A stretch of DNA of 11,426 nt from Candidatus Hodarchaeota archaeon (GCA_016840035.1 JAEOTC010000024.1:1-11426), one strand, 5' to 3'. Numbered from the stretch's first letter, positions 2,354-10,002 are shown. A program made the numbers and translations. Notes: generated from the sequence alone by a model not told the origin.

Positions 2354-3970
2354 TTGGAGAGCCAGAATTTTGCAAACAAAATCAAGAATCTCTTATCTCG
2401 CGAATCCCTCGCGCAAAGAATGGATCTTATTTTAATCACTTTTATATCACTGATTATTCGATTATTATATCTCTGGATGAACTATCCTGACTTTTGGGGT
2501 GATTCATACCACCATTATTATATCACGGAAATAACTTATGAAAATAACTTTATCTACTCTGATTACAAGTCTAATCAATACCTCTGGTTGCCGGGGTTTC
2601 ATTATTTAGGGCTGATTCCAAGCGTACTGTTAGGATCTACCTCTCTTGATGTCCTTCATCTCTTTAATATCCTTATAAGTGTGATGAGCATTGTTTTAGT
2701 AACAGATGTTGCAAAGATTCTCTCAAAAAGTCGATTAAGTGCTTTTATTACAGGATTAGCGATTGCTTTATCGCCCTGGCACATCATGTATAGCAAAATG
2801 TTTATGCCCGAACCATGGGCTGGCCTGTGTCTATTATTATTAATACGAGGATTAATTACGAGGTCTGATATTCAGCTATTAAGCGGTTGGGGATTAGGTT
2901 TAGTTTCTCGCTACGAAAATTGGTTTTTTGGAGTGTTACTCCTTATAGGCTTTTATATGTTTAAAAGGAATCGAGAAGGAAAACTCAAAGTTATCATTTA
3001 TCTCTGTCTGATCTTGGGAGGGTGGTTGTTATTATGGAGTTTATGGAGTAGATTAGGTGTTGGTTATGGGACTTATTGGATTAATACACAACTGGAAGCA
3101 TTAAAGTGGGATAGTACCTTTTATAACTCAGGAATCAACGTTTTTACTCTTTATTCCTCTTGGATTGGCTATGGACTAGGATTCGTGGGAGGAATACTGT
3201 TATTAACCTTATTCGGTGTTAGACGGTACAACGAGACCTTCCTAAATTATAATTTACCTCCAGCTCTGAATCTACTTGATGAAAATTGTGAAGAAGTGTA
3301 TTTTCTGTTAGTTTTTCTCGGTGTTTCTCTCTGTAAGTTAATATCTACATATATATCAGGAGTCATCCCTTCTTACAATCCTAGATTTGTTTTAATCGAT
3401 CTATATTTGATAGTTCTCCTTATACCGTCTTGGCACCTTCTTTTTCGTATACTAATACAATTTCTTAAAGAAAAAAGCACATTGAATACAAAGTTGGATC
3501 TGAATCGTATATTCGTAATTAATCCTGTCAGTATCCTTATTGGAATAATAATCACAGGTGCTTTCTTAAATCAAGTTTCACTCTTTTCTACTCAATCCTA
3601 TATTGTTGAACCAGAACGGCAAGCTGGCTTATTTATAAAATCATGGGTAAGTGAAAACGTCCCAATCGACGAAAAGGTAAATATTTTTGTCGATTCTCCG
3701 GTTATATCTTATTATGGAAATCTAGAATCAGATCAAATGGTTAGTTCAGAAAAATATGCAAGATTCTTAAATAAAAACATTGATCCTAACCTTCGTCTGA
3801 TTGTTCTCCATAATGTATCCTACAGCAAAGGATATGAGACCTTTAGCTTTCTAAGAGATCTTCCAGTTAATCTGACAGTAGAATCCAGTCATTTCCTGAA
3901 GGTATACGAATACACTGGTTGGGAACTAGAATATGGTGCAGCTTCAGTGACAATTTACTCTGTCGAATAG
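2354..3970 (+). CDS. Multi-pass membrane GT-C fold glycosyltransferase (ArnT/PMT-like, GT39/GT83-type), 538 aa
   Basis: Many hydrophobic segments; first-loop acidic motif FWGDSYHHY; LPGFHYL; ALSPWHIMYSKMFMPE; SRYENW; NPRFVL; soluble C-terminal domain. GGTGG SD-like at 2340-2344 before TTG. Confidence 0.82.
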   Translation: MESQNFANKIKNLLSRESLAQRMDLILITFISLIIRLLYLWMNYPDFWGDSYHHYYITEITYENNFIYSDYKSNQYLWLPGFHYLGLIPSVLLGSTSLDVLHLFNILISVMSIVLVTDVAKILSKSRLSAFITGLAIALSPWHIMYSKMFMPEPWAGLCLLLLIRGLITRSDIQLLSGWGLGLVSRYENWFFGVLLLIGFYMFKRNREGKLKVIIYLCLILGGWLLLWSLWSRLGVGYGTYWINTQLEALKWDSTFYNSGINVFTLYSSWIGYGLGFVGGILLLTLFGVRRYNETFLNYNLPPALNLLDENCEEVYFLLVFLGVSLCKLISTYISGVIPSYNPRFVLIDLYLIVLLIPSWHLLFRILIQFLKEKSTLNTKLDLNRIFVINPVSILIGIIITGAFLNQVSLFSTQSYIVEPERQAGLFIKSWVSENVPIDEKVNIFVDSPVISYYGNLESDQMVSSEKYARFLNKNIDPNLRLIVLHNVSYSKGYETFSFLRDLPVNLTVESSHFLKVYEYTGWELEYGAASVTIYSVE

Positions 3971-4171: not shown

Positions 4172-7100
4172 CTATTCCCCGGCAATTCTCTTTTGTCTCA
4201 ACCGATTACCAAAATATAAAGTACTAAGAATTGAAATCCCAAATAAAATGACTCTACCAATGAAAAAATATAGCTCGGAATTTCGTATGGAAAACACCTG
4301 ATCTGAAATGTCCTCAGCAGTCAATCCTCCGGAACACCTGGCAATGACTTTAATCAAGTAGGAGGAACCGTCTTTTCGTGGAAAAACAATCCATGTGTAC
4401 CTGGTAGAGGATAATCCTGTCACGATCGGTTCCCAAGTCTTATTATCAACAGAATAATAGAGCGAATAAGTGATATTATGGCGGAGAGGATCGACTGAAG
4501 CTGACCATCTGAGATCGATAAGCCCAATATACTTCCTTCCACCACTAGGAGACAAGAGAATTGGGGGTAATAGGACATTATGAATTGTAAACTGACTATC
4601 AGAGATATATTCGGTTGTTAATCCATCAGAACAAGAGGCAATGACTTTTATTAAATACGCCTCCCCATCATCCACGTGAGTAGTATCCCAAGAATAATTC
4701 GTACTCGAAAACGCGATTTTTAGTGCATTCCAAGTAGTCCCTCCATTAAAAGAAAAATAGACACTGTAATTGATTTGGTCGTCCCATGAATCAGCTGATG
4801 CAAACCAGTAGACAGTAACATTGCCCCTCAGAGTTTCCCCTCCATTCGGGAAGAGTAAGATCGGCATTGAAAGTTGATGGGATGGTGCTGGAAAAGCTAA
4901 AGGCTGGGAATCAGAATTATTTGCGCTCCCACCTATCAAATAGGGACTATCGATCACACCGTCATCATCAGAGTCTGGCCCAAGCCAATCATCCCAGTAG
5001 TTATGAATAAACAGATTTTCTGACCCATCATCGTCAGCCTGAGACGCATTAATATTATTCTGAAGAAAATCATTGTAGCGGATAAGATTGGATTCAGTCC
5101 GATAATCTAAGAAAAATCCACCCCCAGTATTGTTCTTAATGATATTCGCTACCAAGACATTTCTTCTGGAGTCTCCGCGCATGGAAATTCCCTCTTGCTT
5201 GTTTTCAGATATTAAATTTCCTGAAATGCGATTATTCTTAGAATCATCAAGATAGATACCAGCCCCAGTATTTTTAGTCACATTATTATTGGAAATATAC
5301 GCGAAGTCAGAGTTTCCTAGCATAATTCCACACCCAAAGGTTGCAGTGACAGTATTCCCAGACACGGTGCAAAAGTTTGAGTCCAAAATGTAGATTCCAT
5401 ATCTCATACTCAGAAGCGTATTGCTGGTCACTGAGCAATTAACGGATGACCAAAGAAAAATCTCATCACAGCCACTGTTGATATTGTTGTGATCAATGTT
5501 TAAATTTTGGCAATCCATTCCCTTCATCCCTATAGTTTGATCAGTGACTTCAATAGTACTACAATTGACAAGAAAAATTTGCCCAGCATCACTTGGAACA
5601 GCTCTATTGGAAATTCCTCTCCAAAAAACCAAGGGCTTCCCATTGACATAATTATTAGCAATTTCATTATGATAGAACGGGCAATATAGAAAATTATTCA
5701 CGAGATAATTATTATCAACTTGATTCTGAATCACATCTGCCACGAGGAAAATTCCTACCGTATTATTTGAGACAGTATTATTGGTTAGGAAATTACTATC
5801 ACCGTTTATGGTAATACCAGTATAACTGTCTGAGATGAAATTCGTAGTAAGCGTGCAATTTTCTGAATAAAATATGCTAATACCAGAAATGCTATTTGCT
5901 GAGATAACATTCCCATGGATATCAATGCTTTTACAGGTAAAAACCATAATCCCAATCGTGGTATAGGTTAAATTTTGATTTGTAACTGTAACTCCCGTGC
6001 AATTGCTCAAGATTATCTGGCCTACTCCACTAGGAATAATGCCGCCATGGACATTCTGCCAAATCACTAGGGGCTTTCCATTAATAGTGTTGTTGTGATT
6101 GATTACCGTGGGAAGAAAAATCCACGCATGATGAGTATCTAGTGATAATCCATCATTGAGGAAGACATTCTTGTTAAGTACAACACTCCGAGTAGCTATA
6201 AAATCATCATGGGTCTTAAGATATAACCCCCTATTATTATTTTCAAAATGATTTTCTACAATAGTGAGATTTTGCGCATCTAAAATCCATATTCCAACAC
6301 TGTTGTTGACAATGAAATTCTTTGAAACTCTCGTATTAATAGAGTCCCCCCAAGCACAAATACCGATGAGATTATCAGTAATTGTATTCCCCGAAATTAC
6401 ACTATAGGGTGAATTCCAAAATGACAATGCAGTTGCACCATATGGGGGGCCCATGTCGGTATGATTGGTGAAGGTATTATTCACAACCACGGTTCTTTCA
6501 GAATCGTAAAAACCTACAGAATAGTTATTGTATGAAACAAAATTCTCAACAAATGTACAATTACTTGAATCAAATATTGCCATAGGAACACTATTATTTC
6601 TGAGAGTATTGTTGGAAAAGGCAATTTTCTGGGAATTAGTCACTTTAACTCCATAAGAATGCCAAAAAACATCGGTTGATATGTAATTTCTTGAGATAGT
6701 GCAATTCTCGACTTGAGTTATCGAAATCCCCGTCTCAGTTTGGTTTATGATCGTATTTTTTTCGATCTTGGCTCTCCCAGAAGAAATATTCTCAAGTATG
6801 ATTCCATATGAACCTCCCCTTAAATAGCAGTCACTGATTACGAAATAAAGCTCAGTGGAGTAAATTTCGATTAAGGGACTCGGTGTGTGCCCAGTAATAT
6901 TTAACCCCTCAAGTCGATATGGATTTGAAGCTGTTCCATTTCCCTGCCACCCTTCTAACGCCGCAATAGCAAGGAATTCGGCATTGCCATTGATCAAGAT
7001 CGGGGCATCTTCTTGTGCTTGGTGGGATACGCGATGGAGGATGTTCGGTTGAATTTGAGGTGTACTCTTTAATTGCTCCACGGGAGAAGAAAGGCGTTCA

Positions 7101-7243
7101 GTATCTATGAGATCGGAATAGCGCTCTTCCCGAGAAGGATACTCCGTGGGCCAACACAAGAGAACTCCTCTAGAGAAGAATAAGAGAAAAAGGAGAATTA
7201 CATACCCTCTCTTTCGATAAACATTCATCTCCTCGAATTCCAT
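4172..7243 (-). CDS. Membrane-anchored cell-surface protein (1023 aa): NosD/right-handed beta-helix repeats, two Ig/FN3-like C-terminal domains, C-terminal TM anchor
   Basis: Signal-like N-terminus (RKRGYVILLFLLFF); N-cap PILINGNAEF...EGWQGNGTASNPYRLE; many N-x-I-x-x-N-x-I/GI-x-L coils; duplicated NGKPLV..W...GQI.L.NC blocks; NYWDDWLGPDSDDDGVIDSPY end-cap; PNGGE and SPSGG beta-sandwich repeats; terminal hydrophobic helix followed by RLRQKR. Confidence 0.92.
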   Translation of the reverse strand: MEFEEMNVYRKRGYVILLFLLFFSRGVLLCWPTEYPSREERYSDLIDTERLSSPVEQLKSTPQIQPNILHRVSHQAQEDAPILINGNAEFLAIAALEGWQGNGTASNPYRLEGLNITGHTPSPLIEIYSTELYFVISDCYLRGGSYGIILENISSGRAKIEKNTIINQTETGISITQVENCTISRNYISTDVFWHSYGVKVTNSQKIAFSNNTLRNNSVPMAIFDSSNCTFVENFVSYNNYSVGFYDSERTVVVNNTFTNHTDMGPPYGATALSFWNSPYSVISGNTITDNLIGICAWGDSINTRVSKNFIVNNSVGIWILDAQNLTIVENHFENNNRGLYLKTHDDFIATRSVVLNKNVFLNDGLSLDTHHAWIFLPTVINHNNTINGKPLVIWQNVHGGIIPSGVGQIILSNCTGVTVTNQNLTYTTIGIMVFTCKSIDIHGNVISANSISGISIFYSENCTLTTNFISDSYTGITINGDSNFLTNNTVSNNTVGIFLVADVIQNQVDNNYLVNNFLYCPFYHNEIANNYVNGKPLVFWRGISNRAVPSDAGQIFLVNCSTIEVTDQTIGMKGMDCQNLNIDHNNINSGCDEIFLWSSVNCSVTSNTLLSMRYGIYILDSNFCTVSGNTVTATFGCGIMLGNSDFAYISNNNVTKNTGAGIYLDDSKNNRISGNLISENKQEGISMRGDSRRNVLVANIIKNNTGGGFFLDYRTESNLIRYNDFLQNNINASQADDDGSENLFIHNYWDDWLGPDSDDDGVIDSPYLIGGSANNSDSQPLAFPAPSHQLSMPILLFPNGGETLRGNVTVYWFASADSWDDQINYSVYFSFNGGTTWNALKIAFSSTNYSWDTTHVDDGEAYLIKVIASCSDGLTTEYISDSQFTIHNVLLPPILLSPSGGRKYIGLIDLRWSASVDPLRHNITYSLYYSVDNKTWEPIVTGLSSTRYTWIVFPRKDGSSYLIKVIARCSGGLTAEDISDQVFSIRNSELYFFIGRVILFGISILSTLYFGNRLRQKRIAGE

Positions 7244-7529
7244 TTCCGTTTTTCAGAACTACTTCTTTGATGAGATTGTTTAGCAGATTAAAAACATGCT
7301 AGGTGAGTAAATACTATAGTTCAACCAACCTGTTATAATAAACTTTCTAACTTTTCGAGAAAAAAATCCTAAGGATCCTTCAAAGCCATTCATTTTCGAG
7401 TAAAGAGAAAAATCGTGACAGAAACAGAATATCCAACTGTTTGGTATGTTCGGTAAGTACATTGATGACAATATTACTCTAAATTTACCGTCTTTTGTGT
7501 TACCAAAATTCAGTTGGCCTCATTTGGGT

Positions 7530-7574
7530 TGGTGATAAGTGTCAGCTAACGAAATGCCCCATTTAAATTGATCA
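7530..7574. repeat. 45-bp direct repeat, copy 2
   Basis: tggtgataagtgtcagctaacgaaatgccccatttaaattgatca; same orientation as 4093-4137, 2 mismatches. Confidence 0.95.
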
Positions 7575-7620
7575 ATGGAAGTAAAGATTTTGTGGTAAAA
7601 TTTAATGTCATATTTATCCG

Positions 7621-7990
7621 TTAATAAGCTTCCTCGTCCTTCAGAAATTTACCTTTGTCTGCAAGAAACTCTTGACAGAGAGTTGTATAATCGATATTGC
7701 TTATAACAACATCGAGAAGAAACGCAAAAAACTCCCACTCGTAAGAAATGTTCCTTAGTGCTTTTACTCGTGCTTCTAAGTCCGTTCGGATGATTTTCCC
7801 AATTTCCAGTGCTGTTAGATCAGGATTTTCCAACAACGCATCTACCATTTCATCCCGAAATAGGTTATGGTAGACAATTCGTGTATGTCGATTTACTAGT
7901 TTTTTCCCACCAGAAGTTGACTTTCTTAAGACCTCTAGTCAAATTAATCTCTAATACACTGGTGAACTAATTTGTCGGATTCTTACTCAT
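7621..7990 (-). pseudogene. Probable disrupted gene for a ~122-aa hypothetical protein; the 75-aa ORF 7621..7848 is its 3' part
   Basis: ATG 7990 reads MSKNPTN*FTSVLEINLTRGLKKVNFWWEK (TAG at 7967-7969). Removing one A from the A6 run (7900-7905) continues as LVNRHTRIVYHNLFRDE into MVDALLENP...EEAY*. The reconstruction is inferred; the 3' ORF itself looks like genuine protein. Confidence 0.5.
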
Positions 7991-8199: not shown

Positions 8200-8220
8200 A
8201 TTGACTCTAAGCAAGTCAAT
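8200..8220. promoter_or_regulatory. Inverted repeat ATTGACT-N7-AGTCAAT (operator or terminator hairpin)
   Basis: Perfect 7-bp arms, ~30 nt downstream of the stop of the 51-aa minus-strand ORF. Confidence 0.4.
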
Positions 8221-8251: not shown

Positions 8252-8407
8252 TCAATCTATTCCTGATCCCAATCCACCGTCATGCATAGCGGATCCTACA
8301 GAGGCAGATATTAGGAATAACAGGATCATGAATAAGAGCGGAAGTATCTTTAGTAAATAAAGTTCAGCATTGTGTTTTATATCTCGTTTTCTTAATTGTT
8401 TTTCCAT
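8252..8407 (-). CDS. Small secreted pro-peptide, 51 aa: Sec-type signal peptide plus short polar tail (below the ORF-track cutoff)
   Basis: MEKQLRKRDIKHNAELYLLKILPLLFMILLFLISASVGSA-MHDGGLGSGID*. GGTGA Shine-Dalgarno at 8414-8418, 6 nt before ATG; basic n-region, long hydrophobic h-region, small-residue c-region (G-S-A). Confidence 0.8.
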   Translation of the reverse strand: MEKQLRKRDIKHNAELYLLKILPLLFMILLFLISASVGSAMHDGGLGSGID

Positions 8408-8452
8408 TTATTTTCACCATTTTGATTAAAGTCGTTATTTACTCTTCAAGAC

Positions 8453-8467
8453 TAGAGAAAGTCTCTA
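8453..8467. promoter_or_regulatory. 15-bp palindrome TAGAGA-AAG-TCTCTA, candidate Lrp-type operator in the divergent promoter
   Basis: Perfect 6-bp arms around a 3-bp centre; matches 11/15 positions of the E. coli Lrp consensus YAGHAWATTWTDCTR; lies between the peptide gene and the regulator. Confidence 0.45.
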
Positions 8468-8509
8468 AATCTCTCAGATGTAAGATGCGGATATATTTAC
8501 TAGGAACCC

Positions 8510-8517
8510 TTATAAAA
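8510..8517 (+). promoter_or_regulatory. Candidate TATA box of the regulator (possibly bidirectional)
   Basis: TTATAAAA ~40 nt upstream of ATG 8557; reads TTTTATAA on the minus strand. Confidence 0.4.
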
Positions 8518-8556
8518 TCTACGATGACCAAAATATATCACTTGGGACGAATTTTC

Positions 8557-10002
8557 ATGAAATCTCAAAACCAAAGTCCAGAAATAATCGAAAGACTCCG
8601 ACAAAATACTGAACAGAAGGTTGACACCTTTGTTCTTGATTTTCTGGATATTTGGTATGAGATTCATGTTTTAACCGAAAATCAAAATCTTGAAAATGCA
8701 CTCAAGATTTGTCAATCCATCTTTCCTTCTCATATTCTTCCATTCTTTGAGAAGTACAAAGATGAGGGGAATTTACACAAACATAAGGGTTGGGTTGACT
8801 CTTTTGCTTCTATTTTTCTGAAATGGGGAGAACGTGGAGGATTTTATTTTCCTTTAACATTAGTAATATATGAAATTACATATCACGATAGAGGCCTTCT
8901 TTTCGATTTATTAACCCAACTAAGAATAGGATTTAATAGAGGTACGAAGGTTGAACTCTATGAAGTCCTTTTTCCTGTTTTAACCAACTTTACGGTACCT
9001 CTAGATGAACTTGATTTAGGAATAATGAAAGCATACCAGACTTTACAGCCCTTAAAATCTCTCCTTTTTAAAAATCCAGAAAATAAGTCATTTGCTGAAA
9101 TTCTAGATGTATCAACAAGGACAATAATCCGTCGTTTAAAAATCCTTAAATTACTTCAAATCGTACGTACAAACCAATTTATTGATATGGGAAAACTGGG
9201 TTATGAATCATCACTTTTAGTTCATCAAAATCCTTTCCCAAAGAAATTCCAAAAATATTTACTATTTTCAACGAATTTAACTGTTGGAAACTTTAGTATA
9301 GTACAAATACCTGCATCAAACGTTGCTGATCAGACTAAGCTTCAAGAAAAGCTTGAATTGATGATGATGCAACCATTAGTAAAACGATCTACATCTTGGA
9401 ATTTTTCTGGTATGTCAAGCGGAGAAATTCTTTGGAAGAATCCACCCGCATTCTTCTTTTCCAAACCAGAACTTAATTTAGCAACCCCATCTGCAGATGT
9501 GAGTCTTGATCTGTTACCGACTTTTGACTCATTTAGAAAATTAACTCGTGCAGATTTTAACATTTTGGATTTTCTTGCGAGAGAAGGTGGTTTCAAAAAC
9601 TTAAACAATCTTAGTAATGCTATTGATGTTAACAGAATAGAGATCTCTACACGTCTTAAGGAATATTCAAGTGAAAATTTAATCTTTAAAGCTCATCAAT
9701 TCTTCAATATAGGATTGGATCTTTCAATTTTCTTCTTTATTTCGGACGTTGAAGATCGAATTCCATGGATTTCGCATTTACTTACTTTTCCTAAAGTTGA
9801 TGTGTTTTATCAGAGAGAAGAAAATCCTCACATCTATTTCGGTTATTTGAAACTACCGAACACATGGATTAAACCATTTGCACGGAAAATCGATCTCATA
9901 CGTAAAGATCATGATATTAAATTCTATTATAAAATAGCAAGTGCAACTGATCACTTTAAATGGGGGATTTCACTAACAGAAACCTACCATCATCGCCAAT
10001 AA
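8557..10002 (+). CDS. Transcriptional regulator with an N-terminal ~148-aa domain and two tandem Lrp/AsnC-like modules (wHTH plus probable RAM-like domain), ~481 aa
   Basis: Module 1: LDELDLGIMKAY...NKSFAEILDVSTRTIIRRLKIL...IDMGKLGY (9001-9204). Module 2: LTRADFNILDFL...LNNLSNAIDVNRIEISTRLKEY...FNIGL (9541-9717). Start moved from TTG 8422 to ATG 8557 (GGGA SD-like and TATA upstream; leaves room for the divergent promoter). Confidence 0.8.
   Translation: MKSQNQSPEIIERLRQNTEQKVDTFVLDFLDIWYEIHVLTENQNLENALKICQSIFPSHILPFFEKYKDEGNLHKHKGWVDSFASIFLKWGERGGFYFPLTLVIYEITYHDRGLLFDLLTQLRIGFNRGTKVELYEVLFPVLTNFTVPLDELDLGIMKAYQTLQPLKSLLFKNPENKSFAEILDVSTRTIIRRLKILKLLQIVRTNQFIDMGKLGYESSLLVHQNPFPKKFQKYLLFSTNLTVGNFSIVQIPASNVADQTKLQEKLELMMMQPLVKRSTSWNFSGMSSGEILWKNPPAFFFSKPELNLATPSADVSLDLLPTFDSFRKLTRADFNILDFLAREGGFKNLNNLSNAIDVNRIEISTRLKEYSSENLIFKAHQFFNIGLDLSIFFFISDVEDRIPWISHLLTFPKVDVFYQREENPHIYFGYLKLPNTWIKPFARKIDLIRKDHDIKFYYKIASATDHFKWGISLTETYHHRQ

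Follow-up and report, generated by a model that had tools for sequence, protein, structure and literature searches.

A Conserved Mini-Gene/Double-Lrp Cassette of Hodarchaeum as a Candidate for Peptide Signaling in Asgard Archaea

Introduction

Can a gene of 51 codons that lies head to head with the gene of a large cytoplasmic DNA-binding protein encode a peptide signal for this neighbor? The question is raised by a stretch of 11,426 nucleotides from a Candidatus Hodarchaeota archaeon (GCA_016840035.1, JAEOTC010000024.1), called the window here, in which a sequence-only reading had proposed a peptide/receptor pair outside the RRNPP family and had taken the genome for a probable Asgard archaeon. 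The latter proved correct: the genome belongs to the Hodarchaeales, the archaeal order placed nearest to eukaryotes, and the MAGs that contain related loci are all labelled Hodarchaeota, Hodarchaeum or Heimdallarchaeota.

In the RRNPP(A) cassettes (Rgg/SHP, PlcR/PapR, NprR/NprX, PrgX/PrgQ and AimR/AimP), a propeptide is exported by Sec or PptAB, trimmed, re-imported by Opp and bound by its receptor. The known cytoplasmic peptide receptors of this kind (RRNPPA) are tetratricopeptide repeat (TPR) proteins of Bacillota and their phages, in which the peptide-binding domain is made of 5 or 9 repeats (PMC12700828). Our search of the literature found no description of peptide-based cell-to-cell signaling in Archaea, nor of a cassette that joins such a mini-gene to a double-Lrp protein. 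The cassette analyzed here is a real, undescribed system, and the regulator/mini-gene pair is a credible candidate for peptide signaling in Asgard archaea.

The Mini-Gene and Its Product

The 51-codon frame, its GGTGA Shine-Dalgarno motif and its 11-residue tail, as first read from the sequence, were all recovered (Table 1). In the leader, a basic N-region (about 20 residues, with R-x-R) precedes a hydrophobic core, whose first residues are K-I-L-P, and a G-S-A site; the tail, MHDGGLGSGID, comes next. All subfamilies of the mini-protein repeat this plan, with a hydrophobic stretch of 14–20 residues, a small-x-small site that ends the core and a tail of 8–15 residues, and across the family the R-x-R and K-L-L-P motifs are near-invariant, as are R6, R8 and P23. 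Interpreted from this pattern, the leader would be a putative Sec signal peptide, with a long basic n-region (~20 aa), an h-region of 14–20 aa and small residues at -3/-1 in all subfamilies.

Table 1. Positions in the window of the cassette, its control region and neighboring genes.
Feature	Position	Strand	Remark
Mini-gene	8252..8407	minus	51 codons + stop; ORF + translation
Leader of mini-gene, codons 1-40	8288-8407	minus	
Tail of mini-gene, codons 41-51	8255-8287	minus	
GGTGA, Shine-Dalgarno-like motif	8414-8418	minus	6 nt 5' of mini-gene ATG
Divergent control region	8408..8556		149 bp between start codons
6-3-6 palindrome (candidate operator)	8453-8467		
9-nt inverted repeat (candidate operator)	8490-8498 / 8531-8539		flanks TATA box
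CTAG box			conserved; immediately upstream of regulator TATA
Regulator TATA box TTATAAAA	8510-8517		
Regulator	8557..10002	plus	481 aa, cytoplasmic
Orphan helical N-domain, aa 1-148	8557-9000	plus	AlphaFold model
wHTH-1, aa 151-199	9007-9153	plus	AlphaFold model
Alpha-beta domain 1, aa 203-281	9163-9399	plus	AlphaFold model; linker after
wHTH-2, aa 331-372	9547-9672	plus	AlphaFold model
Alpha-beta domain 2, aa 376-462	9682-9942	plus	AlphaFold model
Large secreted parallel-beta-helix (NosD-like) proteins, two	3-2222 and 4172-7243	minus	one also with DUF7948
538-aa membrane protein, hydrophobic N-terminus	2354-3970	plus	no Pfam/NCBIfam match; between the two beta-helix genes

The mini-protein matches no database family. 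About 50 homologues were collected, always next to a regulator gene. Public protein collections hold 26 homologues, all of 45–55 aa and all labelled hypothetical; those in public MAGs are called as proteins of 50–55 aa. The possibility that the mini-gene is a leftover 5' end of a longer gene for a secreted protein, against which the sequence-only reading had itself warned, was checked and is excluded, since the roughly 70 homologues collected are all 45–68 aa long and a longer form was not found (a search among proteins of 99–2000 aa that gives weak evidence).

The same stretch of residues allows another fate for the product. The mini-protein may stay uncleaved in the membrane, with its N-terminus inside and its short tail outside, so that the basic N-region would bind the regulator and hold or release it like an anti-sigma factor, or a leader fragment set free by intramembrane proteolysis would be the ligand. 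The hydrophobic stretch of 14–20 residues could span the membrane and fits a permanent anchor as well as it fits an export signal, which counts against the reading as a peptide signal; on the other hand, the small-x-small site at the boundary between core and tail is kept in all subfamilies, which counts against retention. A pilin-like class III signal peptide agrees poorly with the leader, because prepilin peptidases require G/A at -1 before the hydrophobic core and neither residue is present there.

Two further features concern the end of the gene and of its product. About 30 nt beyond the mini-gene stop, a 7-7-7 inverted repeat (ATTGACT ... AGTCAAT, window 8200-8220) may mark the transcript end or a protein-binding site. 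In one subfamily of the mini-protein the tails end in a C-terminal Cys (..P-P-T-C) that is kept between species (L008 1258-1425, plus strand; L071 near 6640, G020), and this residue could be a modification or disulfide site.

Pairing and Distribution

The source genome carries four regulator genes, and every one of them has a divergent mini-gene 145–165 bp upstream. When the 84,061 frames of this genome were scanned with a mini-protein HMM, exactly five matched (E ≤ 6e-14, the next best at 0.02); four of them adjoin the four regulator genes and the fifth lies at a contig edge, so the pairing is far beyond chance. Across 22 Hodarchaeum genomes, a mini-gene stands beside 49 of 65 regulator copies (48 recognized by HMM and one by eye), the 65 being those whose 5' end is intact and whose upstream sequence is available; half of the 16 copies that have no mini-gene (8) lie within co-directional tandem arrays. 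These 16 copies count against the reading as a peptide signal. The pairing seen at one locus is thus conserved synteny (4/4 copies in the source genome, 49/65 in the genus), and the same count answers the concern that regulator homologues might generally lack an adjacent small ORF.

All 21 sister genomes in the genus carry the regulator, with 1–12 copies in each. A search of 300 Asgard genomes with the regulator profile matched 20/20 of the genus and 2/2 of a second family in the order, together with weak single matches in three further families, and gave no match in the other genomes of that set (~275). In the second family, a distant relative likewise faces a 68-codon gene that encodes a hydrophobic helix and a Pro-rich tail. 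Regulator and mini-gene together form a cassette that is conserved in the Asgard genus Hodarchaeum.

Such exclusive pairing suits any direct partnership, and this includes a mini-protein retained in the membrane. It sits less well with the view that the two products never meet, according to which the regulator would sense, for example, an amino acid and only control the divergent mini-gene, whose product would do a job of its own as a small membrane protein, a membrane toxin or a peptide with antimicrobial or surface-modifying activity. Divergent pairs of a regulator and its target gene are common, which speaks for this view; against it, the pairing has remained strictly one to one through repeated duplication, with a different tail for each paralogue.

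Several further loci concern the regulator family. In the window, a remnant of a regulator paralogue occupies 7520-7627 on the minus strand (about 32 codons that match C-terminal residues of the 481-aa protein with 58% identity); it terminates at a stop and nothing lies upstream of it. Similar C-terminal stubs, and one N/C-fusion stub, occur in regulator arrays of sister genomes (G001:C14 and G005:C14); regulator copies are therefore gained and lost by recombination. In the source genome (G000), the contigs C251 (2-1153, minus) and C67 (4523-4957, minus) overlap within one regulator paralogue by the same 40-odd residues; the assembly therefore breaks inside the repeated regulator family, and one regulator of this genome is split over both contigs. 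Upstream of an array member in G001:C14 (L034 3034-4245, minus), the expected place of the mini-gene is taken by a gene for a 403-aa protein built of ~50-residue repeat units, each with W..E...L and an HTH-like stretch.

The Regulator: Two Lrp-Like Modules Behind an Orphan Domain

The divergent gene had been described as a tandem-Lrp regulator with an unassigned N-terminal domain, and structure prediction bears this out. In the AlphaFold model (22 homologues as input, pLDDT 87, pTM 0.82), residues 151-281 and 331-462 each form a wHTH followed by a RAM-like beta-alpha-beta-beta-alpha-beta fold. Sequence models do not reach this assignment: Pfam and NCBIfam gave only sub-threshold HTH matches (residues 177-224 and 327-379), with 17.7 bits for HTH_11 (cut-off 25), 13.5 for the haloarchaeal Lrp model (190) and 15.5 for Lrs14 (90). 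The protein is thus a double Lrp/AsnC protein by its modelled fold, while no family threshold is reached by its sequence. The recognition helices are basic and keep an Lrp-like pattern, and the family as a whole is small (125 clusters among 1.84 billion representatives).

The first 148 residues are more isolated. Folded alone, the N-domain reaches a pLDDT of 88, and no clear match was found in the PDB: the best Foldseek hit had an E-value of 2.3, and the best of the VIA wide comparison (Z 4.4, rmsd 4.2, 78 residues) was under the chance level for helical bundles. No TPR match was found in the regulator with Pfam or NCBIfam.

Among solved structures, the regulator resembles the Lrp/AsnC or feast/famine regulators (FFRP), such as PH1519/FL11 of Pyrococcus with DNA (2e1c), PH0061 (2dbb), Rv3291c of M. 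tuberculosis (2vbw) and ST1022 of Sulfolobus (2efn), in the wHTH and RAM-like fold of each half of residues 150-462. Many single Lrp/AsnC structures were matched by Foldseek (probability 0.96–1.0), including complexes with Phe, Leu, Gln and Ile. Amino acids are the typical ligands of Lrp/AsnC regulators, which favors a regulator that senses such a molecule and has no contact with the mini-protein. Unlike these proteins, the regulator joins two modules in a single chain, preceded by a domain without PDB match; its sequence stays below the thresholds of the family models, and the ligand proposed here would be a gene-encoded peptide instead of a free amino acid.

The top Foldseek match, ahead of the single Lrp/AsnC structures, is NirDL (E 5e-7, TM 0.5 by target), to our knowledge the one solved protein in which a single chain carries two Lrp-like modules. 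NirDL / AhbA-AhbB (4ch7, 4czc) is a siroheme decarboxylase. NirDL is an enzyme of heme d1 and alternative heme synthesis, and the match could be taken to mean that the large protein works as a scaffold, or as an enzyme, in the manner of NirDL/AhbAB and that the small one is the precursor of a modified (RiPP-like) peptide or carries the pilin-like signal considered above; the conserved leader and the core that varies in one clade would agree with this. The AhbA model, however, scores only 19.8 bits against a cut-off of 140, and, unlike for NirDL/AhbA-AhbB, there is no heme-pathway gene context, the neighbors being beta-helix surface proteins, an oxidoreductase and small genes of unknown function; for these two reasons the large protein is interpreted as a regulator and not as an enzyme. 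Together with the Lrp-like recognition helices and the lack of any modifying enzyme linked to the cassette, this makes a modified-peptide or pilin-like origin very improbable.

Selection on the Leader and the Tail

In six orthologues of the mini-gene, the overall dN/dS was 0.17; by part, it was 0.08 in the N-region, 0.11 in the core and 0.06 in the cleavage-site region. Given this strong purifying selection on the leader (dN/dS ~0.1), the mini-gene is coding and translated, and the selection together with the genome-wide HMM scan excludes a chance ORF; the small frame is a real gene, as had been supposed. The last ten residues, at 0.73, are the fastest-evolving part in that clade, where the tail diversifies in a way analogous to pherotype divergence.

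Between paralogues the tails are mutually unrelated, being Gly-rich with a hydrophobic-Asp ending in the window and Pro-rich elsewhere, so the expected variability of the tails was found. Each of the four source-genome cassettes was also compared with its nearest orthologues, and in all four the tail is better kept than the leader. In the window cassette the tail scored 0.73–0.91, the leader 0.53–0.57 and the regulator 0.81 (against L011); the figures were 12/12, 0.55 and 0.65 for C28 and 0.60–0.71, 0.32–0.49 and 0.41–0.72 for C227, and C251 gave identities of 0.82 for the tail and 0.59 for the leader.

Co-variation between the proposed partners, a check suggested along with the original claim, was then measured with partial Mantel tests in which the rest of the regulator was controlled for. 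Tail similarity follows that of the N-domain (r 0.30, reached by 0 of 2000 permutations) and of the first alpha-beta domain (r 0.20; 5 of 2000), and shows no co-variation with the two HTHs (r -0.06 and -0.09). The leader tracks the regulator too, more weakly (N-domain partial r 0.17 vs 0.30 for the tail). Since shared ancestry remains in these tests, the co-variation is suggestive only.

These data bear on both alternatives introduced above. A regulator without contact to the mini-protein fits poorly, because the one-to-one pairing survives many duplications and the tail co-varies with domains that do not bind DNA; we consider this explanation distinctly unlikely. Retention in the membrane is a live alternative, because the conservation of the leader (0.06–0.11 in its three parts, with R6, R8 and P23 near-invariant) is unusual for a disposable signal peptide, and the weaker tracking of the regulator by the leader also agrees with it. 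Against it, each of the four source-genome cassettes keeps its tail better than its leader, and the tail is associated more strongly with the sensory domains; we judge this fate of the mini-protein to be rather unlikely. Conservation beyond the ordinary need of a signal peptide points to a separate job for the leader, which may act in the membrane, engage a dedicated processing partner or touch the regulator.

The Divergent Control Region

The distance of 149 bp given by the sequence-only reading is exact between the two start codons. For the regulator, in-frame starts also exist further upstream (TTG 8422 and ATG 8524), and the ATG at 8557 is favored because of the position of the TATA box and because the N-termini of orthologues align there. 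Alignment of 16 loci revealed three common elements: the GGTG in front of the mini-gene (plus-strand CACC), at the same position in all of them, the CTAG box by the TATA and inverted repeats in the middle of the region, the sequence of which differs from species to species. The palindrome and the inverted repeats are candidate operators.

A Possible Peptide Pathway

The best explanation of the two-gene cassette, which we favor tentatively and at somewhat below even chances, is that it encodes a peptide signal and its receptor. The basic N-region and the hydrophobic core would bring the 51-aa precursor to the membrane, its N-terminus inside, and signal peptidase would cleave after the G-S-A site and set free a Gly-rich 11-mer on the outer side. 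This peptide would then be re-imported, for instance by one of the many importers of the Opp/Dpp type; such uptake is feasible, since 17 matches to peptide-binding proteins of the SBP_bac_5 family occur in the source genome. Inside, it would bind the sensory part of the regulator (the orphan N-domain, the first RAM-like domain or both), and the two wHTH modules would occupy repeats in the promoter region, altering transcription of the pair and of further targets. Several such channels, each with its own tail, would operate in one genome, 4–5 in the source genome and up to 12 in a sister species. Export, cleavage, uptake, binding and the DNA sites are all steps that we infer.

The signal reading draws on the exclusive pairing, a translated gene, a propeptide-like layout (45–56 aa), a channel-specific tail, the co-variation of this tail with the N-domain and the first alpha-beta domain, and the ligand-sensing double-Lrp fold. 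Co-folding of the regulator with the full-length mini-protein gave a median ipSAE of 0.59 (runs of 0.67, 0.59 and 0.02) against 0.00 for the best of three controls, with at least 45% of contacts common to the runs and a partner pLDDT of at least 48. In calibration, 58 of 80 solved complexes passed the mark, as did 2 of 110 mismatched pairs; among passes at or below 0.60 were only 7 of the 80 solved complexes but both passing mismatches. The predicted complex therefore lends weak backing to a contact between regulator and mini-protein, in which the binding part of the mini-protein is left unspecified. No exporter, protease, importer or modifying gene is conserved adjacent to the window-type cassette, and this separation from transport and processing genes counts against the signal reading and agrees with a regulator that merely controls the mini-gene.

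Comparison with RRNPP(A) Systems and Implications

As in RRNPP(A) systems, a cytoplasmic HTH regulator adjoins a gene of about 50 codons or fewer with a putative export leader and a short C-terminal tail, and many paralogous pairs with a different tail each coexist in one genome; the divergent layout is that of Rgg/SHP. In contrast to them, the proposed Hodarchaeum receptor has no TPR and consists of an orphan helical domain and two Lrp/AsnC-like modules, the pair belongs to an archaeon, conservation of the leader is strong, and the steps from export to binding are proposed here by analogy. Membership in RRNPP fails because of the missing TPR, and the likeness is one of logic only, an analogy and not homology; the earlier statement that the pair is not RRNPP by descent is upheld, given the modelled Lrp-like modules in place of TPRs.

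The cassette would then be an RRNPPA-like genetic logic assembled from unrelated parts and multiplied into several channels per Hodarchaeales genome. In its widest form, the proposal is that Hodarchaeales communicate by secreted peptides of 10–14 residues, each with its own double-Lrp receptor, in 4–12 orthogonal channels per cell with pherotype-like diversification of the tails, which would be the first such system in Archaea and built of parts unrelated to the bacterial ones; this is possible, and we advance it with more reserve. If the peptide is a signal, it would represent a new class of ligand for Lrp-type regulators, and synthetic 10–14-mers would offer a cheap and direct handle on social behavior and gene control in Asgard archaea. 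If the mini-protein stays in the membrane, the pair would still be an undescribed coupling of a transcription factor to the cell envelope.

Neighboring Genes

The window contains two genes for large secreted beta-helix proteins and a quinone oxidoreductase, and a gene for a secreted repeat protein lies near the cassette of contig C251. The beta-helix and other secreted surface proteins could be targets of the regulator. Two further frames of the window were considered as regulator paralogues and rejected: the 538-aa membrane protein is unrelated, and the regulator profile gave no match to the 75-aa ORF at 7621-7848.

Conserved neighbors in other subfamilies are small proteins without a family, with only sub-threshold longin or coiled-coil matches. 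In the subfamily with Pro-rich tails (L010 1101-1466, minus strand, which is C227 of the source genome; L078-L094), the regulators of which are 23–27% identical to that of the window, a conserved gene of about 110 codons directly follows the mini-gene, and the next gene is often one of about 145 codons that has a sub-threshold longin match; the window-type cassette has neither.
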